From Mizuhopecten yessoensis (lineage: Eukaryota), in contig NW_018407907.1 of assembly GCF_002113885.1 (NCBI RefSeq), positions 1,614,978 to 1,678,977 on the forward strand: DNA of 64,000 nucleotides, given 5' to 3'. Shown here piece after piece: positions 2,556-55,228 of the stretch. The position numbers and the translations under genes were made by a program. The notes under the pieces are model-generated. The model ran no database searches, was not told the DNA's origin, and worked only from the letters and a program-made list of their open reading frames with translations. Numbering within the stretch: the stretch's first letter is position 1; every line of letters begins with the position of its first letter.

Positions 2556-5500
2556 ATGGAATCCGAATGGGACGAAACTCTTCTGTACCAAACGAGAGAG
2601 GTAATATTTGACTATACAAGAACTCCATTTAGTCGACATTCATAACTCAAATATTTTGGTTAACGTGAACAAGTCACGACATTTGACCGCTTTTGATTGT
2701 TTTCAACTCCAAACGTTGATGAAATTAGTTTCATGTTAGATGAAATCTAACTTGATGGACATAATATGATCCCCTTTTGTTACACCTACAATTGTATATG
2801 AATACAGTTTTGGTACTGATATATCGGGACTTTTTGACGAAGGAGAATTTCGTAACTTGGTACAACATATCTATACGCATGATATATTTCATTGAAGGGA
2901 TCATAACGACAGTTAAGGTGTGTGAAGTGAACACAGAGCTCGAAATTTGACGCCAGCGCTATGGAATTTGAAAGATGCAAATTTCATAAGCATTGTCAGT
3001 TTTCCACTACTGTTATCAATAAAGAACAACGCACAGTCAGCTTAGTTTTCAAAATAACTTTAATAGTAATTTAAGGTAATTTGAATGTCAAAGTTTTGGC
3101 AAACCTACGGAGGCATTGTCCTCTTGTTTCTATACACACTATTACATATCATAACGATTTCGTTGTTCATAAATGTTTGCAGTATTTTCTGTGTAATCAC
3201 AAAGATAAGTACAGGAAATATGTAAACGGTTTGAGATTCCTTGTTCCAATGCCAAAACTACGCATTGGAAAATCCGTGCATGTTCGGGGAAGCAATAGGC
3301 CTGCTGTTTCCCACCGCATGATCGTAAGAGGCGACTAGTGTCGGGAGCCCCTGTGAATCGGGGGTGGTTTCTTTCTTTGCCTCCATTCAGTGGACATTGA
3401 CAAAATCAAGAATAGACCTGCTATATCCCAATGCATGTGTATCGTAAAAGGCAACTAATGTAGGACCCCCTTTTCTATCTACTTTCTGTTTAAGGCGATG
3501 TCTCCCTAGGCACTCGTCCTCAAATAACACTGGCTGTTGTAAGGATGTTAAACCTCACACAAAATAAAAAAATAATAAAGATGAAATGAATAAGTTATAA
3601 TCAACAATAGTGTTCTGAGTGGGATTCGAACTCTGGATCAGATTGTTATCCTACTGTTTTAAGCTAATGAGCCACCTGGTCAACGGTAATATACAGGCCC
3701 AACTGTGTAACTCAATCCAACTCAAGATACAGTTACTATAAGATAAGAAGAAAAAAAATGAAAGCTTCAAATCTGCTAATGCAAAACTTTTCAAAGCGCG
3801 AGAATTTCCACTTTTACAGTAGGTTAGGTTGCGTCCAATCTGATTAAATCTAGATCTTCACTCCCGATAGTGGAATCAAAGATCTGGTTTTAATCAGATT
3901 GGGTTGCGTCTTATAGTATTCACCTTACTAGGATATAACTACTTGTATGATATGACGTACCTCTTTGTGTATGATGCAAAACACTTGATTTTTGTCAAAC
4001 AGGAACGTGAATTACAGTTCTCTCCATCAAAATGGTTTACAAGGATAAGTCCAGCAGCAGCGCTCGTAGAGAACCATATTGGTATCCTAACAAAAGGTAG
4101 TGGTCATTTTATGTTGTGTTGAGCTGTATGTTTGTTTGTTTGTTTGAGTTTAACCATCGACAACTGTGGTCATTTAGGGTCACGGTGATTTATTAATTTA
4201 TTTTTTAACAAACGTGTGAGTAGCGAAGTTAAAATGTATATTTAAAGCATTCGCATGGTATGTGTAAATAATTAAAAATGAAAAAGGGTTAAAATAATAA
4301 AAGAGATAATAAATAGATTATATGGAATATGTGATATGTATGTATATATCTTTATATAAAACGTCAAAGAGGGTAAGGTGGGTTAAACGACATCAAAGTG
4401 TAGACCGGTGTCTTTCAAATTGTGAAATAATGCTCTTGAGTCCACGGAAATGAAAAGAGTTTTCATATCCGGGACTCGAAAGTAATTATCATGATTGTGT
4501 TTAAAATGGGAACATTCTATTTAAGAATGTCCCACTGTAAATGGAGTGTCACATGCGTGGCATGTAGGAATGAGTAGGATAAGTGTGCCCAGTGCGGAGC
4601 CGAGAGAGGACAACTTCCTCTCTACGATATTTCCGACTGGGAACGCATGTTCTAAGTTTCGATGTGTTGGACTTGGATGTTTGTTACTAAACGGTAATGA
4701 ACGTGAAAAATATAAATTAACATTGCATTCATTATACTTGTTTTAATACATTAAAGCAGAAACTGCTTTCTGTTCTGTGGAGCTTAAATTCGCGAATTCA
4801 TGCAAAATACACCTTCTGAACTAACACATATCAAATGACACGTATCATATTTTAAAAACGCGTTGTGTTTACAGGAAGTGAAGAAGCCAGACAAACTCTG
4901 GACTGTGAGCTAGACATGGCATACGGCAATAAACCTCTCGAGAAAATAGACATCTTCGGTGGGCAAACCTTACCAGCAGGTATGTGAGCTTACATTGTTT
5001 ATAGCTGGTCTGTAACACGGTGATTGTTTTCGCGGTTAGGAAACCAATACATATTCGAGCTCAGTAAAGTTTCAAAACGGTTATTATTGTATAAGTGTAT
5101 CCATGGTAATATATTTGATTAAGTTTACCTTAAACAATCGAAATAAAACGTGTCGAAAATCATTTTGCTAACGACACACGGGGTTTTACGGGGGTTTTAC
5201 GGCTTTGAGTCTAGAAAAAAACTCGGAGATTAAATGTTTTGCAAATGTCAAAATCGAAGTTGACTATTAAACTGGAAATGAATTTGTGTAATCATTTTTT
5301 ATTCATTTATTTACTGTATTATACAGACCACGGAAGACATCACTGGAATTAAGAGACAACTTCTAAAATTCGCCATTGAGGACATTTCCATGTTAAATAA
5401 ACCTTTATAAAGAGACCACCTGAAATGAATTATTACCGTTCACATTATGCAGGATTCTTAGAACTCTATTGACATGCATTTCATTCATTTGACCATAAGC

Positions 5501-8500
5501 ACCATTGATGAGGCCAACCAAAGTTAGCTTTTACTGGACCATATAGTCAAATGGTCCAATAAATACCTTCTTTGTTTGGCTTTTTACCTTATTGACTTAT
5601 TAATTTTGTTGAAAATGTGCTTGCTAACTTCATATGTTTAACAACTCTTTACGGAATGTCTGAAGGTGGTCTCTGTACATGTTTTAATTTCAACTGGCGT
5701 CTCCTCTATTATACAGATGCGCCTGTCTTTTGTTACATACATGGAGGAGACTGGGCCATGCTCGGGTATGTACGATAGATGTACACATATCGGTCATATA
5801 AAGGGGGACGTCATGTTAACAAAACAATTGAAAATTAATATTTTTAATATTTTTCTTATAGATATGGTTTTGAATTTAATGTTCGTGAATAATGTCATAT
5901 CGTGGTAATTTAATGTTTGCCAAATTTAATGTGGAAAGCAAAACGAGAGTTATGATAATCCGTGAAAAGTTGAAAAGATGAACAATATATCGTGTATAAA
6001 TCGTTTTAAGTACTTTTATTACAAACAAAAGTTTGCGAAGATTTAAGGTATAACGATAAAGGTTACGTCAAAATATTTCAATTGTTGTATGAAAAGAGCT
6101 CTTGTTCTATCATCACAATGCACTCTTTATTGTTCTTTACTATTTTTTATGCCAGGATTTAAAATATTTCTTAATCTTTTATTAGACTTTTTCAGCTTTC
6201 TGATTAAATATCTATTCTTTGTTTTCTTTAAATTGGATGATTAAAGTATAATTTCTGATGTTTAAATTTCGATAAGGTTTGAGGTTTTTACCTATTCACT
6301 ACGACATCCGACATCCAGCGTTATTGTTGTTTGGTATTTGTTGTTGTTGTTGTTAAGATTTGCTTATTTTTAGATGAAACACTAATTATGCTTTTTACTT
6401 CGCGAAATCTCGCTGATAAGGCTAGCAGGCAAGAGAACACAATAGACCAATGAAATGTATTTGTTGAATGAATTTAAAAGTAAAAGGTAAACATTCCTTG
6501 TTCTTACCTCCATTTATTATTGAAACGTTCGTACCATCCGTGTAAAGGCATCTAGTTAGATCCGAAATCAAATGAAACATTTCACATGTGTCGTATGAAT
6601 TTACACAAAACTCTTCACAAATCTATACAAATAATCACCGTGTCTATACTGGCGATTATAACATGAAATCGGTCTCGAGTTCAAACCAAATTCCATGTTC
6701 TAATCGACAGTATAGCCACTCAAAACAACGTATTATCCCCTAAATAGTATATTAACATGACAACAGAATTCATAACGTACACATAATATATATGTATATC
6801 GCCGTGACTCGTTACACTTTATCGTTGAGTGTATGTGTTTTAATGCTTTAGGAGAGAGTCTTCAAGTTTTATGGCTCCTTACTTGGTAGAGAGTGGAATC
6901 GTAGTGATCCCAATCGGATATCAAAAGGCACCGGAAGGTAGGGAGATTCGTTAATCTGAACAGCTTTCTATCCTTATTAAATGTCCACACTAATTAAGTG
7001 AACGAACTAATGGAACAGGATATGAGAGTGATGAGTATTCTAAATTTTTGACTCCGTGGTGTAAAGCCTCATTAGCCAATAAATTGGTAAACAAATAAAA
7101 ATAAATAAATAAGAATAGAGTTTTGTTTGGTTTGGTTTTATGGAGTTTAACGTCCTTTCAACAGTTCATGTCATTTAAGGACGTGCCTCTATATGTATAA
7201 TGTATGCGTGTGTGCCAGAGGCAAGGTATTTTGGTGCATTTGCCTCCTTGTGAAAGCGCGAATCTGATGCCGACATGATAGTTTTACCGAAAGCGATTTT
7301 GTATTCTGTTATTCAATTAGGATTTAAAGAAAACTGTAACTGTATCCTTCTCTTGCAGTGGACATGCCGGAAATTGTAACAGAAATCAAGAAAGCTGTGT
7401 CATTCATTTTAAAGTGGGCCAAAAACCGTGGAACACGGTAGGTAACAATCAAATATTCAAATTGTAAAGCTTGATAATATTTATAAATAGTTCATTTCTT
7501 TTTTTATCATTTCTTCAATATTGCAATATTGCAAAGTACTGTTTCGACTTTATATTGACAAGATTATTGATACAAAGCTCCAGAGAAGAGTTAAAGGTAG
7601 TAGTGTCTACATGAGAATAATCGGATACATTTTAATTCCAATAGTTCCTATGTTAACACACGGAGACCAAGTTCACTATATATTTATATAGCCTGTACAT
7701 TCTTATACACAGGGATAATATGAACATTTTTCATCATATTGGATACATTGTGACAAATGTCACTGGTCCGTTTGTCATGAATACTATATGACCTCTACCT
7801 TAACTTTATCTTTCGTACATTTGACAGATCTGTATATATAGGAGGTCACTGTGCCGGTGGACATCTTGCTGCTATGATGCTGGGGATTGACTGGACAAAA
7901 GAATGTGATATATCCAATGATTTACTTAAAGGTATAAATTGACATATCCGAATGGGTTCGTCTAACTTACTAACTCATCGTCCATTTACATTACCCCCTT
8001 GTCCCCCTACCATTTCCTTGCCCTGCACCCGCTCCTAAATGAATCCACTCCGAAAATAGGCTAACTTTTACCCTGGAGGTGATTTCAGATTTAAAAAAAT
8101 AAAATAAAATACACATGTTTATAGTTGAACACTCATGTTGTTTGGTTTTGTTTTTGTGTTTTACGTCCTATTAACACCTATGGTCATTTAATTACGTACC
8201 AGGTTTTAATGGTGGAGGAAAGTCGGAAGTCCCGGAGAAGAACCACCAACCTACGGCAAGTACCTGGCGACAGCCCCACGTAGGCCTCGGACCCGCGACC
8301 CAGTGGTTGAGGGCTAGTGGCAGCAGAATGTCAGACGCCTTAACATACACTGAGAAAGCTCTAGAAACTCTGTCTTATAGTTTGTTAACATTCTACTTGT
8401 GATACTATTTTACCTACTTGCTGTATCCAACAGGTGGGATTCTGATATCGGGGATATTTGACGTTCGTCCGTTAGTTGACACTTATATCGGTGATCCGCT

Positions 8501-11068
8501 CAACCTGACACGGTAAGTGTTTTTAGAGAAACGTAAATAAAAGTAAGAAGGTAGCACAAAGAAATATCTTTAAGCAGATGCCTTGCGAAATAAAATGGAA
8601 TTTAGTTTAAGCAGATTTTATTGCATATTACAACAAAAGGATTAAGCGCAAGTTATCACAACTTATTGATGCCTTTTCCCGATTGAATTACAAAACAATG
8701 CATGATAACGCAATAATCTAGCTGTAGATATAATTGACAAATTTTATAGAAGTAGAAATACTTGGAAGTAGGGCGTAGAATATTTTAGTAGATGGTTTTA
8801 GTATAGTCATATACACATGTATATATAATGACTTAACAATAGAATTGCGCCTCTGGCTTGCTCCTCACTTAGCACTGTTCACATACTTTCAATAAACAAA
8901 TGTCCGGTCTCATTCCTGTGTCCATCACTGTAGTGACCACTCATGTCAGCCTGTAGATCATTCCTCGAATCACAGTATACTTTCTGTCAGGCAAGAGTTG
9001 CGCTATTTTGATATCATTATTTACTGTGAACATACGATTTTGAATTGTTAATATTCTACAAATGAACATCAAACAGAGAGAGAGAGAGATAGACTTTTTT
9101 TGTCCTGTCGCTTCGGAAGATGGTGAGTGTTTTTTTAAAAAAAAGAAAACGTTTACTTTCGAGAATATATAATTGCACCGCTTGACATATTTGTATATTT
9201 GAGTGCAAGTTAAGATTGTTGTCACCAAAAAGTAAGTGATTAGCAGATATATTTGGATACCAGTTCAGTTTGTTTATCATTTCTGTTCTTTTGTCCTGAT
9301 ATAGGGGGTTGAATCTAGCTATGGAGTTCACTAAGATATATTGACCATACACTACGTATTTCGTTTTATGCATGCTCTATTTTAGCGAGGTTGCGTGGGA
9401 GTGCAGTCCTTGCAAACACGTGGACACCATAGCTTCTCTAAGTAGAAATAGGACCTTAATTATTGTGATGGGAGGGAAGGACACACCTACCTTCAGACAA
9501 CAAAGTAGTCAGTTCGCGGAGGTAAGTACCAAGAATGAACAGCATTACGGATAATCAAGGATTTTCATTTTGAAGCTTGTTCCTCAAATGATTTGTTTAG
9601 AATAGAAAATATGTTGTAGTTTACTATCTTTCACCTTGACTATGTATTCGTACTTTTATTTTTATTTTACGTCAAAATGTCACTTCACTGCTGTTTTGTT
9701 TTTTCGGGTATTTATTTTCATTTTTATTATTCGTTTTGTCTTGAAAAAAAACAATATAGCTTGGATTTCTTCAAGCACAGTTCATAATTAATAACAATTG
9801 AAAAAATGAATTAGTTGATACAACCAAACATGTAACATTTGCAGGATATCCACACCACTTTCAAAAACGCTCTAAATATAGATAATTAACTTGGTTAAAA
9901 GCATGACAATGGTATTAATGAATCATTTCTGGAAAAAAGCGAGGAAATTCTTTATAAAATAAATATATGACGAGATATATGAATAAATGAATAATTGTTC
10001 TGAGAGAGAAAACAAATTGCCACGCTCTTCACGGATTTGAACCAAGAATGCAGTCAACGTTTTTTTTGTTTGGCTTGCTGTGTTGTTGTCCCTTTTTAAA
10101 GTTTTTCTCACGTTTTTCTAGTAATTAGTTCATTCATTTCTTTGACTGTCTGGCTGGTATCTCATTTCATCACGTGACACTATCATATTAGTTCCAACTA
10201 TCAAATATATTACCGATATAATATTATTGTTACAGCAACAATAATACAAGGTAAATTAACAAAAACATATATTATCATTAAATCATATGACAAACTCCCA
10301 TCGTTTATATTATTATTGAATGACAAAACATGTTCACAGGCAATGAGGAAAAGGAAGGTGTCAGTAATTGTGAAGGACTTTGAGGAGTACGACCACTTCC
10401 AAATCAGCGAAAAATCTTGGTTTGAATATAAGGTATTGGGCAGAGCCATATAAGTGCATGCATACTGTAATTTTCTTGACTATCGCGAATCATTTATTTA
10501 TTTTGTATTCGAGATCAAAGGCCATCGCTCGGTATCATACTTTGCAAATATTCTTGACACAGTCAAACAAGTGTATCAACTGAAGACTATAATGGATGAT
10601 TTATTATACATATTTGCCCCACTGAGCATAACCGTATAAATCTAGATTTGTGCCCATACCTTCATGCAAGTTGATAAAGTAGACGTTCGGTGGCATCCCG
10701 CTTCATAATCATGAGAGGCGACTAATGTTGGAATCCCAGCAGGATATTTGCAATCCTTATCTTTTTCCTTTTCTACCTTTTTTACAATGCCCTTTTTGAT
10801 CTACGTGTAGCCCTGTGTGACCTGAATGTTTTATTTAACCATTATAGTAAATAGGCCGTCAAGTTAAGATATAAAATTAAGTTCCCTGTCGCTTCTTCTT
10901 CATCTTCATCAAAATTTCACAAAAACATATATACAATTTCAAAATTAAATTAAATCGTTAGGTTTATGCACCTAAAAATATACATAAATTACTTGATATT
11001 TTCGTTTTATTTTGATTTCGTTAATGTCATCTCTGTTTCAGGAAATCACCAATGTAATGATGGCATAA
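2556..11068 (+). CDS. AFMID: Kynurenine formamidase (AFMID)-like alpha/beta hydrolase, 11 coding exons, ~298 aa; nucleophile position is Cys
   Basis: Phase-consistent GT-AG exons 2556-2600, 4003-4096, 4875-4979, 5717-5765, 6852-6937, 7359-7437, 7828-7931, 8434-8512, 9386-9521, 10340-10432, 11042-11068 (897 nt). Translation has AFMID hallmarks: ELQFSPSKW, MAYGNKPLEKIDIF, YIHGGDW, GYQKAPE, GGHCAGGHLAAMML, LISGIFDVRPL, GGKDTPTFRQQS (Asp), DHF (His). The last exon choice is less certain (alternative stop by read-through near 10453). Confidence 0.9.
3290..3580 (+). mobile_element. SINE-like interspersed repeat (family with cgtaagaggcgactaa motif)
   Basis: Motif 'gcatg..cgtaa(g/a)aggc(g/a)acta' occurs twice here, followed by a 'gctgttgtaaggatgttaaac' + A-rich tail. 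Related copies at ~10695-10740, ~19612-19745 and, reversed, ~28390-28600. Confidence 0.6.
7120..7280 (-). mobile_element. SINE-like repeat fragment
   Basis: (GTTT)n tail then 'gtttaacgtcct..caaca...catttaaggacgtgcctct...gcctccttgt'. A second, longer copy lies at ~24760-24985. Confidence 0.6.
8138..8345 (-). mobile_element. tRNA-derived SINE with V-domain-like core
   Basis: Reverse complement contains a 'ggttcttctccgggacttccgactttcctcc' core resembling the V-SINE domain, a degenerate tRNA-like head at the right end and a simple-repeat tail at the left. A more degenerate relative lies at ~31240-31380. Confidence 0.65.
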
Positions 11069-14000
11069 AAGGGAAACCATGTTAACTTAAACCATTGGCA
11101 AACGTTGACAGAACATTTATATTCAAGTAGCGTGGAGAAGGTGATTCACTCCATTGCAAAACAAAATTTAAAAAAGCTGTTCCTTCATTACATTGAACAT
11201 GCTTTTTTTGCTTGACAAAATGTTTGTGGTATTCAACATGAATATAGAATGTGTAGCTAGAACATGTATTGTTTATATATGTATTTATCATGACTGTTGC
11301 AATACTTAAAAGAGAGGTTGCCATCTAGGTGATTCTTATATTATTTTGATAAAGTAACAGGTAAAACCCTAATAAACAGCATACAGTAGCTTCATATAAA
11401 TAATCATATTAGAAATATGCAAGTCCCGATTCAATTCTGTAATTCTACCTCATATATTGTTATTATATGTGTAGTTTTAGCTCTTTATCTCTTTGCATAT
11501 TGCAAATAAATATCATGAACTTGCAAAAGTCTGTTTAAAGTTTCATTTTTTTTGTGCCTAGCACGCAACAACCCATTAATTATATCACCAGTCTGTCAAA
11601 TTGTTAACAATGGATCTAACACTAAAATATATACTATTTTCTGATTATTGTTTTAATGGAGTTTGTTATCCCACAAGAGGACATTAACCAAACATATTCA
11701 CACTTTCTGAGTATTGTTTTAATGGAGTTTGTTACCCATAATGGACATTGACCAAACATTTAGTTTTGTTTGGGAGGTAAATAAAATACAATTACAAAAT
11801 AGTCATAAAGTGTGTTTTGCAGCGAATATGATAAGTAGTAAAAGAACTTTTGTTAACTTTGAAATTTACTACACGTCTTTTATTAGGTGTCGCAGAGAAC
11901 ACTTTTTTAGTTGCGCGGATATGACTTAAACATAAAAAATATATTTATACTACAATACCATTCACAAATGGACGCCCATAGTTTATACTCAGTAAAAGTT
12001 AACACACAAGACCCGCCCCCACCCCAAAAACAAATGAATACCATTACGTCAGAAAAAATAGACTTATAAAAAACATATGGATACAAAAAGACAAAAACAG
12101 GAATTGAGAAAAAAATGCACTCAACAAAATAGGTAGAGGTAAAACCAATTCCTATGGAGACACAGTGACTTACATTTCTTGCACATCAGACTTGAATATC
12201 ACATATCGTACAAATTATATCCCGTGCTCGATCTGTCGATCTCGTCTGCTCGGTCTTGCACCGTTTCGTGCCATTTTACATCACATTTTACACGGTGGTA
12301 TATTCATCTTAAGATACAGTCAAAAATTAACTTCACTGCATCATAAGACTGTTTATACCTTCTAAGACTCGTCTATGATGCTAGGGGTTGGAGCAGAAAA
12401 GATTGAACTCCGAATTGTCTTAACTACTGATAGAACAGAGGGGCAGATGCGTTATTATGAATTAAACGGTTAAGAGCAGTACTGCTTTTTTATTAACCAA
12501 ATAATCTTGAAAGTGTGTAACAAATAGCGATAGTATTGTCCTACATCACACTGAACACAAGTACATATTTTAGATAAACATGAAAAAAGTTTTCTCGAAA
12601 TGAACATCGTCTCTATTTACAAAATGACTTAGCTAAAGTACAGGCGATATGTTGTTTTAAGTCTGATCCAATATATTCAAGAGAAAGGTGAGTGTTTGAA
12701 ACATTTATGCAAAATCGATTGTTTAACATATATTTCAAAACTTACCTTTATCCATAACAATTGAATTGTTTCAAATGAAACAAAGCTTTGTTTTATTTGC
12801 ATGAATTTGCAAGTTGTAATACATTATTCATAGGAGTAAAACTCTAAAAAGATGTCAAAACAGAGTGAAATGCAATCGTGTTATACCCACCAATAGAAAG
12901 CATGAAAGACACTTTTACAATAACAGGGGTAAAGGTCAAGTTATAAATATAGACAATTAGAAGGTTGGCTGCACCAAATCAGAACAGCTTATAACACGAC
13001 AGCCGGAGCTAAAGACCCATATATACGTACGTAAGTGGCCCATGTACGTATTAGAGGTCTGTCTGTTTGTTGCTGTTTAAGAAGAGCAGTGTGTCTATTA
13101 TTCAGATAGGGAGCGGAAAATACTGCTCATTTTAAAACTAAATTACTTCATTTTGCACGTATACAAGAAATCAGTTTGTTAAATCCTTTATTTTTATATC
13201 ATATTGTAGAACCTGTTTATAATTGCTATAAAAAAAGGTTTTTGCACATTGCGCCGTGAATTCGATATTGTTAGGGGGGTGACATTTTTTGCGTTTTTAA
13301 CCTTAATTGCCTGGTGCTAAGTTTTTGCGATAACAGTTTTAAGATTCCTGAGTTCTTTAGAAAGGTCTTATATTCGTTAAACACGTTGAGAATATGTATT
13401 AACTTTTAGCAATCGTACATGATTAAATTGTACACAACATGAAGTAGTTCAATATTTATGGTTCAACCTTTTTTTATAGAATCATTTCCATTATTAAATT
13501 TAGCGAAAAAAACACAGAAGAGAGAGGGAGATAGGACTTAAAATTGTTTATGAAAAATCTGAAATGTAATTTCAGTTGTTATTTGTAAAACCGCCTTTCG
13601 ACCACAAGTTTTAGAACATTTTGCTGGCATAGTGTCTGAATGGGACTAAGTTATCCTACTAGCATTAATATGGTTTATGTTCAGTCTATATGGTATAACA
13701 ATTAACAAACGCGATATATTCAATTGAAATAGGAATTGTGAAAATATACCTGAATTTATGGTTCTTGCCATAGATTTTGATAAAATTGATGAAAACATCT
13801 ATTAATGTAATGGTGATACAAAGATATATAATAAACTGTCTGTCATGATATTGGTCAAAAAGTTTAAATCTAACAGGGGAGGTAACTCCTTTACCCCAAC
13901 TCCAATGTGCAGTGTCTGCAGTTTTGGTTTCAGCACCAAAAATGGGCGGGGGAAGTTGTGGAGTGGGTTCGGCTTGATGCTTTAGTGGTTTTGAAGGGTT

Positions 14001-16120
14001 TGAGTATAAATGTAGTTCAAGACACTGGAAACGGTTTGAAGGAGACGAGCTAGAACGGATATTTGAAAGTAATGGGTACCATGATACATTGTTTAGTCAT
14101 AATACATGAAATGGTTAAGTTTCATAACAAAATATGCAGACGTTTTTGTACCAAAACATCTTAGAATAGTTCAACTTTGACCCCATTCTATTTTTGGGGT
14201 AATATGAACACGACATTGTCGTATAACACAATGCTTATTTATGACGAGACATCGGACTTGCAATGGATGAACGTTCACCCTTACTCATGACGTCGGATTG
14301 TTTATTGTATTTGTGTACTAATCTCAGAACCCGATGAAAGTATAAATTAATATTATATATAACATGGTTGATGTTTAAGCAAGAAACTCTTTACAATGGT
14401 TCTAAAATATGACACAATGTCTACAATATGACATTTTAATGACCCTAAGAGAATAATGTATCTACCTCTTTCAGATAGACGCTTCGTATGAAGTCCTAAA
14501 AAGTAATGAATTATTTGTTATGAGTGGTATTATGGAATTTTCAAAATCCAATGAGTTCAATTAAAATATAGTATCAAACTAATAATTCACAGATTATTCA
14601 ATACCTGTCTATCACATAATTTTTTGATGACCTATCAGTGTGGCTAATACAAAAACTCTTTATTGACCTCGGTTTGTCTATCACAATACCTCAGGGTGTG
14701 AATCACATTATATAAATACTACATTCATTATAGGGTAACAGTGATATCACTGTCACACTCTAATGAATGTTGTTTTTATTTTATTATACCGAAAGTTAAT
14801 ATGATTAAGAAATATTCAAATTTGTAACAAATATAGTTATTTCTTCAACAAATTTAACAGCGAACTATTTAAGCTTTAACAATAAAGTTATTGTATGAAC
14901 ATTGTGAATTGCCATGGCCGTTAGATAACAATGTAGTTATTGAAATCGACGATTAGGTTACCAAACAGCTTCGGCCGATTGTTCATCCTGACTACCACGT
15001 GAATGGAGCGCTTGTAAATCTCACTCATCTCAGCGTTACGTCGGCGTTATAATCACTGGTAAGATATACACGTTAGCGACATGGAGTGCCTTTGGACCTA
15101 CATGGACGATGATTTGCAACGCAAAACCATTGCGGCTAAAACGAACCGTATGCTCATCTTCTTTACGCGGTCACTATTTAGCACTGTCACTCGTTGCTAG
15201 GGCGTTGGGAAGCACCCTCCGATTGACTCAATGTTAAAGCGAATATGACAGTGTGAATTGAACAATGTACATGTATCTCTACCAATCAGATTACTGGATT
15301 TTCACTAGAGGTTTAATATGACCCTTTAAAGTGACTATTTAGTCAAATGACAACCTGAAAATCGAGTGGATACTGAAAATATGTATCTCCTAACGAACGT
15401 TTAAGTGGTTAATAATGACAGGACCTGAAGCCAACGTCCAGTGTGGTCAGTTTCATCTTTTGGGAAAGCCGGTGATAAAAATAGCTACGACCGTAATAGC
15501 GCAATATCCGGGCCTTTCTCTGAGAATTAAATATGTACAATGCCACGTTGTCGAACGACAACACAGCGTCAGTTATGAGTCTTATTTCACACGTTACACA
15601 TATATCGCAAGCAAGAGTTATAAGTATAATACTATACAAATATAATCTGATATTTCCATTAACAATTGACTTTGAATACAAACAAACATGTTTAATTACA
15701 GTATGCAAGCACTGAGAGGGTACCGCAGGGCGAGTTTCAAACAACAGTAAGAACGATGTCAATAGGTTTAAACGTAAAATAGATTACTAATTTATAACGA
15801 TGATTGGTGGTTGGAAGTTGCTTTCGATTAAGAATAAAAACATTTTTGTAAGCTAGAATTCACCGACAGCGGCCGCTAAAACGTATTGTTGTGCGGTTTA
15901 GAATTTGTTCATTACTGATTCAAAACGCAACGAAAACGTTGTCTTTTATCAATTTTTCGACATGAATTGTTCATAAGGAATATCAAACTATATTATTACG
16001 AAGACTTTTCTGACGGGATTGAAAAAACGTACTTCATTAAATTGTCCCTTATAATGACTTCAGAGTGTGTATCATTCTTATGACTTGAGTGTGTCTATAA
16101 CATAATCCTTTCAGGAGCTC

Positions 16121-16122
<2 letters not shown>

Positions 16123-16177
<55 letters not shown>
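16123..16177. repeat. (CT)n microsatellite
   Basis: Directly visible. The paralogous tract is at 35422-35469. Confidence 0.98.
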
Positions 16178-16182
<5 letters not shown>

Positions 16183-16714
16183 TACATACACACACACGTA
16201 GATCTATTGTTGTTAAATGTATTAACTTCAATCTTTGTTATCACACTTACATCACCTACATACACTTATATATATCGGCATACAAGGACAGGAGATGTAA
16301 AGTCCGGCCTAATATATGTCGAGCTGTTTTACTAGTGCACAAATAAACAAGATATCATATTTGAAGATGAACGTAAAAAACGTTGGTCGGGTAGATACAA
16401 GTCTCGTGCCGACTATGTTTGTCCACCATTAGACACTTTGAAGCATCGACAGATAAGACGATTCACCTCATCAACAGTATAGGTAAGATTAATGATGTTG
16501 AAATGATGTTGAATTATGTTTGAGTAACTGTGAATGCTCTGAAAATTACAATTCCGTATTTGGCAGCAAAAATTAACCCGTATAAGATATTATATCCATG
16601 GCTTAAAGATGTTGGGACATGTAACTAATTGTCTACAATAGCCTTTAATTTAGCTTTTATTGATTTAGAAGTCTGGAACATTTTGACCATAAGGTATTTA
16701 TCCTTAAACGATTT

Positions 16715-17110
16715 GGGATACCTATCACATGTTCATATAATCATCTGGGATGTCTATCACATGTCCATTTAATGATTTGGGGTGTCTATCATATGACCAT
16801 TTAATGATTTGGGGTGTCTATCACATGACCCTTTGATGATTTGGGGTGTCTATCACATGACCCTTTGATGATTTGGGGTGTCTATCACATAACTGTTTAA
16901 TGATTTGGGGTGTCTATCACATGACCATTTAATGATTTGGGGTGTCTATCACATGACCATTTAATGATTTGGGGTGTCTATCACATGACCATTTGATGAT
17001 TTGGGGTGTCTATCACATGACTATTTGATGAATTCGTATGTCTATCACACGACTCTGTAATGATCTTGCAATTGGGTGTTTATCACATGACCCTTTAATG
17101 ACCACAAGGT
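16715..17110. repeat. 32-bp minisatellite array
   Basis: Unit 'atgaccatttaatgatttggggtgtctatcac', about 10-12 copies. A longer paralogous array is at ~36050-36720. Confidence 0.95.
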
Positions 17111-17514
17111 GTATAACATCAAAAAACCTCCATATTGATCCATTATATGCCGTTTAATAAAGCTCGTTTTATGGTCTATTAGATGAAGTCGTATACACTT
17201 ATTAAATATAATGTCATTCAAAATACATTTCAATTTAATATGTGATCCGATTTATTTATCTAAAATACCCTAGATTGCCTAAATCAAACTGTAAGCCCTG
17301 GGTATACTATAAATGTAGAAACACAACAATCATACAGTGGGCTGAAAATAAACCCAGTTTAAATTCATATATATTCTTATTGGTGTCAACTAAATTAGTT
17401 GTATCTTTAAACAGGCAATTTCAAATATTACTTGTTAAAATAGCGTGTCGCAAAAGTAAATAAAACCTAAATTGATTTTTTTAAATGTATTAAGAGAAAT
17501 GTGGGGTGAGTCAT

Positions 17515-17825
17515 CAATGACCAACACCACAGGTCCAGGTCCAAAGCTGTTGCTATCCAAACTTTTCCGGTGGTCACCTTCCACCCAAATATGTCCCTGC
17601 AGTAATCGAACCACTTTCTTCATGCTGCGGGTCCACACGCCATCTCCCTCCAACGCCACGACCCTCTTGATTAATTTGACACCGTGATCAACTGGTGAAA
17701 AAAGGGACACAATTTCGCCTCTCTCAAACTTGTAACTCCGCACTCTCCATTTATTGAGAAATGGGTTCAAACACGGCTCCATTGATATGCCTTGAACCTC
17801 TGCAACATAACCGACAGTGCTGAGG
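17515..17825 (-). pseudogene. IMMP2L: Captured internal fragment of IMMP2L, inside an open chimeric ORF 17435-17911
   Basis: Aligns to 54820-55163 in the same orientation (TVGYVAEVQGISMEPCLNPF...IKRVVALEGD...GHIWVEGDHRKSLDSNSFGP). Has an in-frame 33-nt deletion and lacks both native termini. Confidence 0.92.
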
Positions 17826-17960
17826 GTGTCTGTCACATAACCATTCAATGACCTCAGGGTGTCTGTCACATAACCATTCAATGACCTCAGGGTGTCTGTC
17901 ACATGACCCATTCAATGACCTCAGGGTGTCTGTCACATGACCCTTTAATGACTTCACTGT
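17822..17960. repeat. 33-bp minisatellite array (variant of the 32-bp unit)
   Basis: Unit 'atgaccattcaatgacctcagggtgtctgtcac'. The paralogous array is at ~37680-37895. Confidence 0.93.
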
Positions 17961-18187
17961 GATGATCACATAACCTGTTAAACATATGTTACGATAAAAA
18001 CAATTGTAAACGAAATGCAATAACCCTTTAATAGCCTCATTGTGTCTATCACATGACCTTTTGACCTCAGTGTATCACATGAAGCTTAAGTAACCTAAGG
18101 GCACATCACGTGATACTTAAATGGCCATATGGGTATATTATCTGTACATTTGATGAAATAAATTTTAATTTTGTGTTGACCTCAATA

Positions 18188-18232
18188 GAGCACAAAGTAC
18201 AACAGCTGATAAAGAGTCCTGTTAGAGTTACC
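18188..18232 (+). pseudogene. 45-bp fragment of the B-box/NHL gene family
   Basis: gagcacaaagtacaacagctgataaagagtcctgttagagttacc matches 40699-40743 at 37/45 nt with a 17-nt exact core (EHKVQQLIKSPVRVT vs EGRVQQQIKSPVRVT). Confidence 0.8.
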
Positions 18233-18684
18233 TTGCAAATACGTGGCTTCGGTATGATTTCTCTCACCACTTAGTTATTTCGTTCACTTTTCAGGACAAC
18301 GTTATATATTTATTTGCTATACTCGTAGGTCTCTATAATACCAAATACATGTGTACACGCTTGGTTCTAAAATGATACTACAGTCATGTTATGAACATTG
18401 TGTTCTTTCATACATCAAAGAATACAATTTGACATATACAACTTTATTGTTGCTTTCATGGCCATTCTTGATCCGAAAGGTCACCAACTTCAAGGCTTGG
18501 TGGACAATTAGCTAAAAGATTTTCTAAAACAATGCGTTTCTGTTGTGGTGCAAAAAAAATGTTAGTCTCACTGTGCTATTTTCAGATACCGGAGAACGCC
18601 ATTTCCTAGGCAAAACATTATGAATCGGGCCATTTATTGATATATTTGCAATATAACATTATTTTTGCCTTTTTACCGTGACAG

Positions 18685-21600
18685 ATCCCAAAGGACACCA
18701 TTATCCAGGTATGGCGGACAGACAACTACCTAAGGAGGGTGCTGTTAGAAGGATACCGAGTTATATATTCTTCCTGCTGGTACCTAGACCGAATAGATCC
18801 CGGCGTCCACTGGCGCAAGTTCTACCAGTGTGACCCTTACGGTAGGTATCTTACCCAGTAAATATTATCGTAGAAACACAAAAATATATACAGCATAAAT
18901 AATTCTGGTTTTAGAATTACGCGGTTTTTGTAGTAATATCCAATCCTCTCCTGTGTACATGTCACATGAAATGTACATGTCACATGAAGTGTACATGTCA
19001 CAGCTAGTTCCCCCTCTTCATAGCCTTATTACTGTGTCTGGATTTATCTGTCTCCAGTTTTATGAACGTTTCTTACTTTGCGGCAATTCCTTAGCTTAGT
19101 TAGTCCATAGTAAAGCATTGTTAAAGTTAAGAATATTTATCTTTTTTTCGTAAATTAAAAAGTGCATTCCTTGGGGAAAAATGAAGGTAAGGAGAGTTCA
19201 TGAAAATGGGAGCTGGCTAGATGCATCCTGTTGACCAATAAACTACTCAGTTTTTTCTAACTAACAGAAAGGTCGCAATTAACACTGAAGAAATGTTACG
19301 CCATCATCATGACGTAAATTCCAACCCTGTCATCGACAGAAACTGAAGTGTATCTGGACTAAGTTTATGTGTGCCTGATTTAATTCTGCCATCGCTCCTT
19401 CCACAAATCCTTACCATTTTAGATATAAAGAAATAAAGAAATATTATACTTTGTCCTTTTTTAAAATAGTCACGAAAATATTATTTTGACTCCTGTGTTA
19501 TGTTACCCAACTTTATCATCAGATGGTGGCCGCTACGCGAATGACAAGGCCATACTTGGAGGAGAAGTATGCATGTGGGGAGAATACATGTCAAGCGAGA
19601 TGTTGATGAANCTCCTTCCCGTGTACAATCCGGGGGGGGGGGCGGATGGGGGGCGGGGGATTCAAGGGACATTGAAGAAACCAATGATAGTGTGTAGCTG
19701 TATCCCCCGGCATGTGTATCGAAAGAGACGACTAATGTGAGCTCCGTGCATGTTTTCTTTCCTGTCTTCTACTAAAAAGACATTGGATACACCAAAATTG
19801 CTGCTGACCCCATGTTCGTTTCTTATCTTTCATGTTTCCTTTTCTTATTAGTTTTTCCGGCGGTGTCTTTATTTTTTGATACATACGTTTGTGCAAAGGT
19901 GGTGAACTATGTGTTGCTCGTTATACTTTGCCTTGTTTTGCTTTATGTATAATCCCATAAAATACTTTAAACACGGAAGTCATAATCAAATAATAGATGC
20001 ATTGGCCTTTTTATATTATCAGGCCTCGCGGTTCTGCAGCAGCAGAGCGACTTTGGAGCAGACGAGAGGATACCTTGGATTTGTTTGACGCTGCCAGACG
20101 ATTAGCAGAGCAGAGGTGTCGCATGCTGAGGTAATATATGGCTACTGTATGCTCAGATATATAACGTATGTTGAAGTTGTATGATTGGATAAAATGCTAG
20201 CGTCGAATGCTGAGGTAAATTTCAAGTGTTGTAAGTTAAGGAAACAAAAACTGGTACATGTATAACATCTCGAAGTAAAAAGTATATCTCGCATCCTCTG
20301 GTAAATTGTAAGTGTCGTTTGCTGTGTTATCTCGTATGCGCCCAGGTTATCTATTGAAATTTATAAGTTATCAATACGAAATCAATAAATAAATCAATTA
20401 ATATGCAAACAATCAATCAATTAATTAATATGCAAACAAGCAATCAATCAGTCAATCATACCCTAAGCAACCTTTATCGTATACATCGATATATAAACAA
20501 TATATTATGAGAAATTAGAATCATATCTAATTTACAAATTGTCTTTCAGAGCACTTAAACACACAAACTATGGAAATTGGGCTTTGGTCGTTTTAATTTT
20601 CAATAACCTAAATGTAAATATGATGATATATGGACAATAGTTACGTTTTTCGAAGATTTACCATTAATTCATTGACAATGCATCCCTATTATTCTCAATA
20701 TCACCACTTAAGATGCAGTGTCATTTATTTGTTGGCATACTGTATATATTATCAAATGTTAAAGGTGTACACTCTGCCAGTAGATGTTTTAGTCCCCGTT
20801 GGTTTGCCATAACCTTGATGGTCAATTATCTCTGTTGAGTAGTGGCATGGTTAAGAATATACACACTTTAGGGATGATGTTATTGGAAATCAGTACTCCT
20901 CTTCATTTTACAATTCATGCGTTAAGGGATGTTTTACAGTTATTTAGACAATCCAGATTTAATCTGTTTGGTCCCTCGCATCACCAATGAGTCCTAGAAG
21001 GACGAATCAGCTGTAAAATGCAGTGTAATTTATTTTTCGGCAAATTGTATTGTTTACCAAATTTTTAAGGTGCACTTACCTGTGTGTGTAACATGTACGT
21101 ATATCTTGTTATACATTTTAGGAGAGGCCTTGATCCCGGGTTTGCCAACGGACCTGAATTTTGTCTGAGGAAGAATGTCAGCAGACGCAAATCACATTCC
21201 CGAAACCATGTGACAGATCTGTCAGCCAATCACAACTCTGTGTTCCAATACCCAATCATCGACAAGAAACAGACAGTACCATGTGAATCAGACAAAGAGG
21301 TAAATCTCTGAAGACTATAGAAAGAAACATATTTTAAGTGCATCTGTTCCACTGCAGTGAACAAAATACAGAAGAATTCTAGCATACGTTTTCATAAATA
21401 CTGTTAATTTCCCTTAATTTACAGAACAGAAGTGGAACGATCTGTTAGCTCAGTGTTGGTAAGGGCAACACTATTTTGATCGAAAGTCGAAGGGGGGAGG
21501 GGGGGGGGGTGGAGATATAACTCAACAGGGAGGAAGACAGGGTTGTTTGTTTGTAAATGATTCCAGAAAAGATCCGAAACTATCTCCAAAACCTTAAGTA

Positions 21601-24244
21601 TAAGTTTAAATTTTTGGCAAAGGTCAAACTCACTGATCTAGTCCTTTATCTATTTAGAATTGTTCTTACATAAAAATGAAACGCAAGAGTTATTACATAT
21701 ATTAAGTCCATATGATCGGGCTATGAAGAAGCATATTTTTCAAAATTCCTGCTGAATTTATACAGGTATTTGCTGATATTTATGGGTAGTTCTAACATTA
21801 AGGCTATGCTTTTGACTGAAGCGCCATCTGTAGGCAAAATGAGGAATACTTTAATAAATGAGAATTTTTGAGAATTTTTTTATGTTTGATAAATCAATCA
21901 TACTTACCGGAAAAGCTCTGTGGGTAAAATCCTAATATGCATGTAACTGCATCTTTTACTTTTCATTGTATTTTTCTTGTGTTTCAGAACAATTTGAACA
22001 TGATTGGCCATTTATTTACCTTTACCTTTAGTACAACTGGTCATATGGTGAAGTAAAATGTAAGCTTTGTTCGATTCCATAGATAGACGAACCAAATTTT
22101 ATATCGGTGCTTTCTTACATCGTATAGCTAGTAAATGGCCGAGTCAATCAATTCACATTTAAAACAGTGACTGGATTAAGATAGCACATTGCTGTACCAT
22201 GTTTTCAAGCATAACATAGACAATTAATAGGTTTGAGTTGTTTTTGGATGCTGTGTACAGCATTCGTTGTGGTCTTCGCCAAGCCTGGGCAAATCAAAAC
22301 CAAACAACAGACTTTCTGCTTCCGCGGAAGATCTTTAAATGCTGTGTAGATTATTTTATGGTATGATTAATGCTATAAAATGAGAAAATACATATGAAAA
22401 CGATCAATAAATCAAAGAGAAAATGTTCAGTGAGCATCATGAACTATATCAATCTCAGATTACTACGCTTTTTGAACCGAATAATTTCTTCACAAAAAAA
22501 CAACAACACTTTATCTCCTTACGCGAAAGATCTTTAGATAATGTGTTCATTATTTCATGATACGATCAATGGTATAATATGGTAAAATATATCTGTATAA
22601 GACAAAAAATCAAAGAAAATATGTAAAGATCTTTAACAGTGGCGTTTTTAATCAGTGAAAGTTCCGAACTATATTTGGTTCAAATTACTACGCCTCGTAT
22701 TCCAATACTCTTAAGTGTGTGTGTTAAAGTTTTCTCCCCTTGTCCATCATTGCGTAGTTTCATGCTCGCGACCTGTTGAACGACTGTTTGATAATTGACC
22801 TTGATAATGTAGGCTTCGTGTTTTCTTTGTCTCAATGGAAAGTCTCCAAGTGAAAGAGAATGTTGACGTATACTAAAGTAGCCGTCAGCAGCTGTGCCTA
22901 ACGAGTTTATAGATAGCTTCCCAATGCGACAGCAGCTGTGCCTAATGAGTTTGTAGATAGCTTCCCAATACAGTCTCTAGATAATGGCCCGATTAGTATA
23001 ATACAAGTGCTTCGCGAATATAGCATATTGAACATCAAAAATTAAAACCGTATATACATATTATTCACATTTACCAGAAACTGAATAATTATATAGGTCT
23101 TTAACCTTCGTTACAATATCGAGAGAAGGAGAGATACACAAGCGGCTTGCATTAGTCCGTGATTACACGCACTGGGAAAAGATCATTGTCTGTGCTCTGT
23201 AGCAGCTTCATTACACTAATTAAGGACCAGAATATCAGACAACTTTCAATTTCAGGGCTGTTGGGTCAAGGTCATCGTTTCTTATTTTTATACTGCTAAT
23301 GGTAGCCAGTAAGGGATCTATATTGTTTTAGCAATACTCTGCTTGTTTTTTATATTTTTATTGAAAATTATAATTAAGGGATGGGCTATTTTGACCCTTA
23401 CTTAACAACATGTTCTTTATTATTTACTGCCATTCTGTACTGATATACCATCTCCTTTATTCCATTATTTGAATCCTTCATACACAGCATCCCTGAGTGC
23501 CCTCGGCACTTTGATTAGATAAGTTGCGAATGCAAATTAAAGAAATACTTGAATAATGTTAAGGTGGTTGTAATCGTGGGATGAGACATAACGTCTCTAG
23601 TGCCGGGTTTAATATTGCTATACACAGATAATAGTTATAGACAGTTTGTGACAAAAGCAGGGTAGCCACTGCAGTAGATTGTTATCGACTGTAAACACGC
23701 GTCTTTATGGTTACTCGAATGCAGCCCTCACGTGATTATTTTTATCCTTTTCCTCTTTAAAATGTACTGCTATCCGATAAATGAATTGGAAGACAAAAAC
23801 CTACACCGACAGGCGGAGACTAAGCCTAAACGGAAGCTCGAGAACTCACACATGTTATACACAAAAGCTAACTCAGAAATTATCATCCCCTACCAAACCG
23901 TCAGAGGCGAACAAAGGGAAGTCATTTGCCACATCCTGCCACATTTAACACTGTCAACCATTGTCCCTGTTAGTCCCACAAACTAACATGATTTTATAAT
24001 TATTATTACAGATTATGTATTGATTTTCATAGTATCAATCAGTAAAGGAAATCACTTCATAATGTCCGTCAATTCTGCAAGGTAGAGTACAAATCCTTTG
24101 GTGGAAAATCCTTGCTTCGCTAACAAAACTTTGTTATTTATTCTACTTTAGGTTTTGTTCCTGTGCTTCATGACTCCAGTGTCCGTCTTCGTTGAGATAT
24201 TCCTAATATGTTTGCACAGAAAGAGACGAATGTTACGGTGCTGA
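18685..24244 (+). pseudogene. Beta-hexosaminidase (GH20, HEXA/HEXB-like), 3' exons only; 5' exons not found in window
   Basis: Exons 18685-18841 (PKDTIIQVW...GYRVIYSSCWYLD...WRKFYQCDP), 19523-19610 (ILGGEVCMWGEY, cut by the N at 19611), 20023-20130 (PRGSAAAERLWS...RLAEQRCRML), 21122-21299 (RRGLDPGFANGPEFC...), and a probable last exon 24152-24244. Family call is strong. Pseudogene status is inferred only from the missing upstream exons. Confidence 0.8.
19611..19611. other. Ambiguous base / probable assembly gap
   Basis: A single n. The hexosaminidase exon stops abruptly here without its donor, and unrelated SINE-like sequence follows. Confidence 0.8.
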
Positions 24245-27200
24245 CGATGCTGAACTTGTTATTTGGATTTGGACTACAATTCTATAAATGTTATAACTGT
24301 TATTTATGAAATATGTATATGTATAGATCCATTAATGTAAAAATCGCATGGCTTGATAATAATTTTGTTTTTGATAAACTTATAATGCAATAAAATATTT
24401 GAATTATATATAGTTTGAATATTTCATTGTGTTTTTTTTGGTTTCTTTATATTTTCTACGTAGTCAATTCTATTATGATTTCCCGTTGATGAATCTTGTT
24501 AATAATACAGTTACAAGATTAATCAAGACAAACAGAAGCCTTAAAAATGTTAACCAAATAAAAATATATACAATTTCTAAATAACCCAATTATACATGTG
24601 TATCGTTTTAACTGGCTGGATGTTGATATGTAAAGATAAGATTAATATAATGTAATAATGTTATCAACTTTCCATAATAGCTCGTAATATCTTTTGATAT
24701 TTTGAAATAGCTAATAACATATACATACAAGATATTTCGTTGATATGGTCTGTTTTTAAAGGGTTTCACGTCCTATCAACATCTAAAATCATTTAAGGAC
24801 GTGCCTCTCTATGTGCATTACAAAATGTATTATCAGTTCATGCTTATGTGTATGTATGCTGGAGGCAGAGTATGTTGGTGTGCTTGCCTCCTTGTAATAG
24901 TGCAGATCTTATGCCGACTTCATAGCGCTACCTCACTGAAATACCAGGACGAAGGCACCTAGGACAGCATTTTCGTGGGACCCAAATGTCGAGGTTTACC
25001 GACAAAACACCATTTCGAGGGGACATGAGCTCTTGGATTACGGGCACCCACTCAAATGGAGAATCGCTTTATATCAAACTTGAAACTACATCGTTGACCT
25101 ACGAGTTCGTGGAGGAAAATTACCCACAACATAAACGAAATTTAAAAACAAACTACGAAAATATGGTGATTTCACAGTTTTCATGCTGGCTAAAATGGAT
25201 GCGAGCAAATGCTTTAAAAAAAAGAAGAAAGAGTAAACGGAGAAAACTCATGAGACTTGATGATCCATTATACAGTTTCTTGTCAGATCAGATCATTGTT
25301 TCCGGACCCATTGTTATGAATCTATCGACTTCATGTTTTTACAGACTGTGATGAAAGTTTAACAAATGCCAAATGGTCCTCTTAAGTGTTCGAAATATAG
25401 GGTAATAAGGTCAACGCTGGGGTCACTATTGGTATTTATATGTCCACAACGAGGCAAGAAGGCAATGACATTTTCTAGTTTATTCAAATAACAATGGCAA
25501 TAATTTTCATTGCATTTCAATAATATTTGCAGATGACGTGTCATTATGTATGTTCATGAAACTTGATTAGGTATTTCGAAACAATTTTAACTCGGATGAA
25601 AATTAAATCGAAACAGTGGCTAACATCAAAATATGTTATTTGTCCTACGTTTTAGCTCAGATTGTAAATGGAAAGCACATTCAATAAAATATATAAATCT
25701 TGTGTAAAGAGCTATGTATCAGTCTTCCCTACAATGCACAATGTGTTAGATAAGAAAATAAAGTATTTAAGATGTTAGCGGGGTCATGTATCCTTTTACT
25801 AGAACACAACTGTAAATTGTAGTTTGACACTCTAAAAGTGGTTTTAACCATATGGAAAATATATTTTGAAATACCGTCGCATGCTACTCATCTAATGTAA
25901 TGCCGACTTTCTATGTATAAGAAACTTAAGGAGGATGTTTTTACTAATCTATATAATGTATAATATACATCATCTCAATAATTTGCTTCCACAACAATTA
26001 TTAAAGGATCGAATCATGTTCTGTTGAAATATAATTTGGTATAAACCTCGAGCAGTCTTGAGACATTTTGATATGATCTACGAGGATTCAGTACAACTAT
26101 TTAAATTCAATGCTTTTTTTTATATAACTCCAAAACATTGGACGTGTGCAAGTCTATGCCACAAAAGGTACCAACGCATGTGACGTCATCAATCTCCGTG
26201 TGAAAATTGAAATAATGTATAACAAGAAGTGGTTCTCGAACTAATTTGCTGACGTATTCGTTAGCTTACTGGAATGTTGAAGCGGAGGAAACAATATATT
26301 CTTGTAGGTATACTGAGTCTAAATTCAGTAGAAATAAAAATATTTATATTTAATAAATATAATTCAAGACAAGATAAAACTACCTGCTTAGAAAATGTAG
26401 ACCAATTTCAACAATGTATTCAGGTATTCGACTAGCTTGAGAAAACACATTTTAAAATTGTTTCAAACTAGATATAAATATACCATATTATTTTGTCAGT
26501 AGACCATGGACAAATCTGTGTTGTCAAGATAGCTCTCCTCTAAGCTGATACAATTTTGCTTACTCGTTATGGAACCGTGGAAACTTGTGTTAAACATTTT
26601 TTATTACTATTTTAGAAAGGGAAATTAAACTAATATTCGAAGAAAGGGACATTTTTTAACTAGTTAATGTCTAAGGTTTTAGGTATGGAAATGGATAGCT
26701 GTCGAATCATCTCACACATTGAGTATAAAGAGAATTTTGGGTTCTGAAAAAAAGTGCCAGCTTAGGTGTAATGAAGCTTGATGCATCTCAGTTGTTACAT
26801 GTAACGCAATAAATTCATTTTCAGTTTAATTATTGATAAAATGTCATCATTACAAATAAATCCCAGCTTAAATCATAGTTTGTATCTTACATGTCTTCTA
26901 ACCACACCGCTGTCATTAAAGTAACTCGTGTTTGTGCGGCGATATGGCAATAGGTCACGTCACAGCGTAATGCCTGACGCAAATAACACACCCATGTAGT
27001 AAAATCAATCTGCTATGATAATGAGATATCAAACAGCACCTCCAAAAAAATGCCAATATGCAATCATTTTAATCCAAATAACTAAATAAGTGTCACTGAT
27101 GAATTGAAGCTTTTAATCTAGCTGTGACATCCTGGCATTTATCAGTGCAACATTTTAATAACAAGTTAATTCACGACTTGATTATCACGTACAGTTCCCA

Positions 27201-35419: not shown

Positions 35420-35471
<52 letters not shown>

Positions 35472-54721: not shown

Positions 54722-55228
54722 TCAGATTGCAAACGGAGATATAACTCTTTCCTTTGAAAGTGGACACACAGATAACCTTTGCCATCGACTTGGTGGCCAA
54801 ACTATGTGTGTGGCGCGACCATTGACCAACGCCACAGGGACAGGCCCAAAGCTGTTGCTATCCAAACTTTTCCGGTGGTCACCTTCCACCCAAATATGTC
54901 CCTGCGGTACTGTAACAACTTTTTTCATGTTTCGTGTCCACACGCCGTCTCCCTCTAACGCCACGACCCTCTTGATTAATTTTTCACCGGGATTAACTGG
55001 TGAAAGAAGGGACACAATTTCGCCTCTCTCAAACTTGTAACTCCGCACTCCCCATTTATTGAGATGAACATAGTCTGAAACTGAATACTTTCCAAGAAAT
55101 GGGTTCAAACACGGCTTCATTGATATGCCTCGAACCTCTGCAACATAACCGACAGTGTTTAGGAACGTTGCCGTTGCTGGCACGACGAAGGTGACTGTCC
55201 CCACGATATACCTTGTCCAACTCATCAT
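54722..55228 (-). CDS. IMMP2L: Mitochondrial inner membrane protease subunit 2 (peptidase S26), intronless CDS, 168 aa
   Basis: Complete ORF with N-terminal hydrophobic segment, catalytic Ser (GISMKPCLNP) and Lys (LIKRVVALEGD), VPQGHIWVEGD, SLDSNSFGPV and the IMP2-type C-terminus ATHIVWPPSRWQRL. Confidence 0.95.
   Translation of the reverse strand: MMSWTRYIVGTVTFVVPATATFLNTVGYVAEVRGISMKPCLNPFLGKYSVSDYVHLNKWGVRSYKFERGEIVSLLSPVNPGEKLIKRVVALEGDGVWTRNMKKVVTVPQGHIWVEGDHRKSLDSNSFGPVPVALVNGRATHIVWPPSRWQRLSVCPLSKERVISPFAI

Follow-up and report, generated by a model that had tools for sequence, protein, structure and literature searches.

The 158-codon open reading frame on the minus strand at 17435..17911 of the window, by which we mean the whole 64,000-nucleotide stretch of Mizuhopecten yessoensis DNA that was analysed, is most probably a dead partial duplicate of the nearby IMMP2L gene, decaying without function and placed in antisense orientation within an intron of the gene next to it. 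The first-pass annotation had presented it as new-gene formation in progress. This reading was not upheld: the ATG is likely not shared by other individuals, the divergence from the parent fits neutrality, the conserved core is lost, and the spliced strand is the opposite one.

Structure of the chimeric reading frame

The following features define the frame and its sources:
17435..17911, minus strand: chimeric open reading frame of the window's allele, 158 aa with an ATG start
17823..17975: 33-bp minisatellite of 4.6 units, source of codons 1-29
17877..17910, minus strand: 34-nt satellite unit whose extra base puts the ATG at 17911 in frame; skipped by RNA contig X13
17515..17825, minus strand: piece of IMMP2L that covers about residues 26-135 of the parent and lacks 33 nt at 17759
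17435..17514, minus strand: read-through tail of non-coding flank origin, homologous to copy 2 near 37050-37155
54722..55228, minus strand: parent IMMP2L gene, 168 aa, with an intronless coding sequence
13115..18185: copy 1 of a local duplication, carrying the fragment
32544..38044: copy 2, which lacks the fragment
37156..37763: stretch of copy 2 (three satellite units and about 515 bp) replaced by the fragment in copy 1

In the window's sequence the frame stands as it was first described, with a true ATG and 158 codons. Codons 1-29 are minisatellite, the middle is the IMMP2L piece, and the last 26 codons come from the non-coding flank. The reported capture of about 310 bp of IMMP2L from 37 kb away was likewise confirmed: in copy 1, an internal 310-bp piece of the parent's coding sequence takes the place of about 610 bp present in copy 2, and positions 17825-17515 align to 55163-54820 of the parent with a single, in-frame 33-nt gap and a divergence of 7.7% (92% identity). 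Homologies of 3 to 5 bases lie at both ends and at the deletion, all of them as previously noted. At the 5' joint (17825), CCT is common to satellite and parent (agg on the plus strand); at the 3' joint (17519-17515), CATTG stands against CAATG; and the 33-nt deletion is flanked by TCT on both sides (aga). One satellite unit carries an extra base (run 17907-17909) which copy 2 does not have, and the 24-nt pattern over this base occurs a single time in the genome.

By its structure, the window's allele is classed from its sequence among partial duplicates with recruited sequence. The ancestral copy is identified, full-length and annotated, the fragment is an internal piece of it alone, and both ends of the frame come, in this allele, from flank homologous to copy 2. 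The genome search, with 3 matches among 4 candidates, gave one full IMMP2L gene, the parent. Another copy as donor was considered and rejected, the other two matches being the fragment itself and a sequence of 46% identity elsewhere, on another contig. The exact chimera sequence is absent from the protein collection searched, where its close matches among 2791 candidates are to the parent alone, and no chimeric protein, annotated or assembled, was found in the annotations and collections searched. Nothing on this locus was found in the open literature (subscription journals fall largely outside this coverage).

A young translated chimeric gene is very improbable. Its product would be a soluble protease-like protein without an anchor, its start and N-terminus derived from the satellite, made at least by those haplotypes that have the extra base. 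Such a gene would account for the 158 open codons with an ATG and for the retention of Ser43 and of the Lys82-Arg83, EGD and DSNxFGP motifs, and polyA-type hexamers (AATAAA or ATTAAA) do lie less than 300 bases past the stop. Against it stands the absence of the protein from every annotation searched, in addition to the evidence on start, divergence and strand given below.

Joints in independent DNA runs

Eight of the 19 listed sequencing runs were used. The DNA check rested on four runs from four studies (X1, X2, X5 and X8; 32 of 150 contig pieces listed) and the RNA-like check on four further runs (X11-X14; 24 of 30 pieces listed), X15-X19 (shares of 0.05 or less) being left out. The 3' joint is bridged with at least 31 bases on each side in all four DNA runs, and the deletion together with the 5' joint is covered in three of the four among the pieces listed, where DNA pieces extend beyond 17825 by 21-27 bases, which is borderline under the 31-base rule; RNA contig X13 extends 51 bases beyond this position. 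An assembly chimera is thereby ruled out, since the joints are present in independent DNA runs. The annotation had named junctions unsupported by reads as grounds for giving up its reading; they stand in contigs of independent studies. The fragment itself was found in all four DNA runs and has therefore been kept, a point against the reading as a dead copy. At 17526 the window's letter disagrees with all four DNA runs at full depth, the runs carrying the parent's letter, and the window holds private letters or errors near this position. In run X8, a second contig has the parent's letters at 17618, 17625 and 17642, and not at 17627 and 17630; this contig may be a further haplotype or the product of gene conversion between fragment and parent.

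Start codon and the extra satellite base

The satellite frame without stops and the extra base setting an ATG at 17911, both part of the original description, hold in the window; the in-frame ATG is likely not shared by other individuals. Contig X13, which has the fragment's own deletion, skips 34 nt (17876 to 17911), and the base that makes the ATG is absent from this allele. It is likely absent from X1, X5 and X11 too. Both alleles were simulated in a k=31 graph and compared with the runs by contig ends. If the unit is missing, one piece at 17823-17871 and another running on unbroken from 17909 are expected; for the window's allele the expected pieces are 17823-17870 and 17880-17937, with a break at 17914. 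The X11 pieces (17823-17871 and 17909-18500, with zero cover at 17890-17908 in the bin depths) match the allele without the unit, as does the X5 piece 17909-18320. The main X1 piece (17889-17962) has one gap at 17907, at a depth of 162.7 of 188.3. The extra base is missing in all four listed pieces that span the site, two of which (X8 and X12) may be copy 2. Depth at 17907 without a deletion row amounts to 104.8 in X2, 7.4 in X5 and 78.6 in X8, with 25.6 ungapped in X1; it may come from contigs with the extra base or from short satellite contigs, and the whole comparison is to be read with the caveat that contigs drop rare variants. A start codon shared across individuals was thus not found, being absent in X13, with contig ends in X1, X5 and X11 that fit absence. 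The window's in-frame ATG would then be a rare allele that arose by a recent slip of the satellite, or else a mistake of the assembly.

These alleles weigh against a young gene, although the frame of the allele without the 34-nt unit, open for 201 codons, could be used from an upstream exon or a non-ATG start; its first in-frame Met lies behind the catalytic Ser and leaves 115 aa. On the minus strand, stops are missing from two of the satellite's three frames, while every unit holds two ATGs in the remaining one; a slip of a single base is enough to move an ATG into an open frame. The minisatellite might also act as a segregating on/off switch, in which haplotypes with the 34-nt unit translate the 158-aa anchor-less chimera from a minus-strand transcript overlapping the host's intron and the others do not. 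We regard such a switch as highly doubtful; if true, it would make gene birth watchable inside one population. Should the extra base be real and segregating, and a minus-strand transcript exist, the locus would offer a direct test of gene birth by satellite slip.

Divergence from the parent

Over 99 codons, the fragment and the parent differ by 9 synonymous and 14 nonsynonymous changes. The pooled dN/dS, to which a young gene could appeal, is 0.44-0.59 and not significantly below 1 (one-sided p 0.06-0.17), a figure that pools the copy and parent branches and has low power at 99 codons and without outgroup DNA. For a neutral copy and a parent evolving at an omega of 0.05-0.2, 13.8-15.8 nonsynonymous changes are expected, compared with the 14 observed. 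When 23 random substitutions were simulated on the parent's 99 codons, 38-40% of the trials remained stop-free, so an open frame is unsurprising. The earlier remark that many changes are nonsynonymous and the frame nevertheless open is correct in its counts (14 of 23), but goes no further than chance.

The changes were split between branches using the Argopecten protein as a guide and leaving out the private letter, which gives 8 changes on the copy side and likely 4 on the parent side. Conserved sites altered to residues almost never seen there make up four of the eight copy-side changes, as compared with 45% for random missense changes, and none of the parent-side ones (0/4, n=4 being the likely count). 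If four or five of the changes are the parent's, 8-11 remain for the copy, where 13.1 would be expected (p 0.10-0.34), which would be weak comfort for selection, provided that the split is right. Synonymous divergence is 0.11-0.13, in line with the non-coding flanks beside the insert, which differ by 4-16% (8.7% in the next intron stretch). Purifying selection on the copy was not detected, counts and sites fitting neutrality within the low power of 99 codons, and the divergence as a whole appears to fit a neutral copy beside a constrained parent. The comparison with 54820-55163 that the annotation had proposed thus returned divergence that fits neutrality, an outcome which it had itself, together with absent transcription, equated with a dead fragment. 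At parent positions 38, 79 and 82 (window 17689, 17680 and 17779), fragment and Argopecten agree in having E, D and V, and the parent differs from both; the parent may have changed after the copying, or the donor may have been another allele.

Predicted damage to the encoded protein

The parent is annotated in public sources, is 72% identical to the Argopecten protein and matches 94 homologues. IMMP2L and Imp2, the mitochondrial inner membrane peptidase (peptidase S26), have an N-terminal membrane helix and a Ser/Lys dyad, and belong to a two-subunit complex (PMC8835746). A functional member would be proteolytically active together with IMMP1L. The dyad region is common to those proteins and the chimera; absent from the chimera are the membrane helix, the strand with D-Y-V and the W-P-P near the C-terminus, and its P108 and V130 are changed. 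Both properties first attributed to it, a retained Ser/Lys dyad and a lost native membrane anchor, were recovered. The codons for Ser43 and Lys82 are kept in the fragment, the two residues align with invariant columns, and Lys82-Arg83, EGD and DSNxFGP are kept as well; Pfam Peptidase_S26 scores 41.8 bits (cut-off 22.9). The deletion, however, takes D52-Y53-V54, the tail replaces A139 and W144-P145-P146, and P108 and V130 are altered, so that the conserved core (D52, V54, P108, V130, W144-P145-P146) is not intact. Among the 94 homologues, these positions are conserved in 93 (D52), 67 (Y53), 92 (V54), 94 (P108), 94 (V130, as V or I), 93 (A139) and 94 each (W144-P145-P146). The loss of invariant residues at a neutral rate is a further argument against a young gene.

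In the structural model of the parent (mean pLDDT 82.3), the lost or changed residues lie in strands 52-57 and 135-144 or next to them; the chimera is without helix 2-26, without strand 135-144 and without half of strand 52-57. An N-terminal transmembrane helix was not found in the chimera, which has the satellite peptide instead, with a hydropathy peak of 0.66 versus 1.55 in the parent. The model of the chimera has a mean pLDDT of 65.7 and a pTM of 0.51, with pLDDT below 50 at 32-53, the region with Ser43. Its fold was set aside as evidence, having been built on an alignment of intact homologues, whose helix the N-terminal one likely mirrors, and apart from the poor confidence at Ser43 it favours no reading over another. 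With these residues and strands lost, the encoded protein would be damaged. The human IMMP2L gene spans 860 kb with large introns (PMC8835746), and the scallop gene, whose coding sequence is intronless, may be a retrogene that replaced its ancestor.

Transcription across the fragment

The transcripts covering the fragment involve three further features:
2556..11068, plus strand: coding exons of the kynurenine formamidase-like host gene, with the stop at 11066-11068
11141..18684, plus strand: GT-AG intron in the 3'UTR of the host, holding the fragment antisense (one contig, one study, X13)
18239..25200, plus strand: 3' portion of a beta-hexosaminidase-like gene, duplicated in inverted orientation from a locus about 300 kb off, with its first exon at 18685-18841

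The name of the host comes from a relative, since its exons, scanned one by one against Pfam and PDB, gave weak matches only. The loose end of the X13 contig equals 11109-11138 exactly, and the donor at 11140 is joined to the acceptor at 18685, which places the fragment antisense in a 7.5-kb intron, by a splice joint seen in one contig of one study. In both X11 and X13, 18841 is spliced to 19523. These joints are GT-AG and on the plus strand, and the letters of the spliced exons match the window's copy and not the distant gene (0 differences in X11, three of four diagnostic sites in X13). Contigs specific to the fragment extend in X11 from 17405 to 18680, without strand and at a depth of 3-7, compared with 10 for the spliced exon; this is high for a plain intron. 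As the unspliced X11 contigs lead up to the spliced exon, they fit intronic or retained plus-strand RNA. RNA contigs cover the frame without indicating a strand, and the spliced joints lie opposite to it. Run X12, whose RNA status is a guess, does not cover the hexosaminidase exon and may be DNA, and was left out of the expression analysis. The RNA over the fragment is likely the host transcript's intron. The absence of transcription had been put forward as a sign of a merely dead fragment; transcription is in fact seen over this stretch, likely belonging to the host intron.

The fragment-specific RNA contigs in X11 and X13 are also what would be expected of a young gene, but no minus-strand splice joint or loose end was found upstream of the frame in the four RNA-like runs. 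A second possibility is that the fragment acts as RNA, its 310 bases being antisense to the IMMP2L mRNA at 92% identity, and that pairing or small RNAs damp the parent. The fragment's antisense position inside a transcribed unit speaks for this, as do the unspliced X11 contigs running from 17405 to the spliced exon (18677), which resemble a retained stretch or an alternative first exon, and the identical runs of 44-60 bases that remain with the parent (17541-17600 and 17702-17745). Synonymous divergence is nevertheless about that of the non-coding flanks, whereas pairing should hold these sites, and X14, from the same study as X11, shows contigs of the parent and no piece of the fragment among the pieces listed, a hole which by itself proves nothing. 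We consider a role as RNA quite unlikely.

An RNA contig joins host positions 11042-11140 to hexosaminidase 18685-24260 on the plus strand, behind the stop, in a UTR without an in-frame ATG. This read-through fusion of host and hexosaminidase puts introns past the stop, and its mRNA would likely be open to nonsense-mediated decay. At 7826-7933 (plus strand), the host has the nucleophile motif GHCAGG, where a solved relative has GHSAGG and a Pecten maximus relative also has Cys; on this sequence, the protein may be a Cys-nucleophile variant or a pseudoenzyme.

Origin of the fragment

The arrangement probably arose from a break at the minisatellite, repaired by a template switch to the IMMP2L gene 37 kb away, with the original flank rejoined after the copying. 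The copy would then have drifted neutrally, its frame open by chance, and a recent slip or error would have added the base that makes the frame; its unspliced RNA would be intron of the plus-strand kynurenine formamidase-like transcript. The two copies of the duplication differ by 1-7% far from the insert compared with 8-16% near it, and the lower divergence away from the insert suggests a later homogenisation of the flanks. The stretch of about 515 bp was considered as a transposon inserted in copy 2, which was rejected, the genome search having matched it only to itself.

An RNA-copied origin, either as a patch of reverse-transcribed IMMP2L mRNA or as a truncated retrocopy, would leave the fragment equally dead. 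The piece lies wholly in coding sequence, and as this is intronless in the parent, an RNA template would look alike and repair from DNA is indistinguishable from RNA-templated insertion. However, both ends are internal to the coding sequence, neither poly(A), nor a target-site duplication, nor an intact 3' end as in a processed retrocopy is found at the joints, the target DNA was lost and not duplicated, and the donor lies 37 kb off amid DNA-level duplications. A copy made through RNA is on these grounds decidedly unlikely, and we retain repair from the DNA of the gene as the preferred origin.

Templated insertions at repaired double-strand breaks are short copies of a nearby donor, with microhomology at both joints and loss of target sequence. 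The scallop fragment resembles them in the proximity of its donor, the microhomology and the target loss, and differs in being old, germ-line and present in all four DNA runs.

Comparison with known chimeric genes

Partial or chimeric copies are reported to be common, at 56-86% of the duplicated genes of C. elegans and D. melanogaster (PMC3449122). Drosophila Hun, a partial duplicate with recruitment (PMC3449122), is alike in that a coding piece is joined in frame to a non-coding neighbour. Hun is described there as testis-expressed, while in the scallop chimera the start is likely unshared, the divergence fits neutrality, and only splicing of the opposite strand is seen. The antifreeze glycoprotein gene of northern gadids (PMC6410882) is similar in that a one-base frameshift in tandem repeats links parts of the reading frame, and in its minisatellite-like DNA. 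In gadids it is the functional genes that carry the frameshift, they gained a promoter, and their repeats form the active part (PMC6410882). In the scallop chimera, unlike these genes, a single allele likely has the base to itself, and what forms the core is a piece of a damaged enzyme. The IMMP2L duplicate is a clear example of raw material, in which a new-gene look on one haplotype dissolves across other individuals, and a caution against calling new genes from one assembly.

The surrounding rearranged region

Other parts of the window hold duplications and repeats too. The stretch at 38552-45287 duplicates, in inverted orientation, a cluster that has B-box and NHL domains (compared with G000:C4580:1899000-1935700), and 38552 resumes exactly where the hexosaminidase copy stops (25200), in the order of the distant locus. 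An old copy (69%) of the last exon and 3'UTR of the kynurenine formamidase-like gene lies at 45494-45785, and interspersed repeats with many genomic copies elsewhere are found at 22240-23520 and 15320-16050. The sole N of the window, at 19611, marks an assembly gap which cuts the second duplicated hexosaminidase exon, so that the assembly is imperfect nearby. This is a rearrangement-prone region that shuffles parts of IMMP2L, hexosaminidase, kynurenine formamidase and TRIM-NHL genes.
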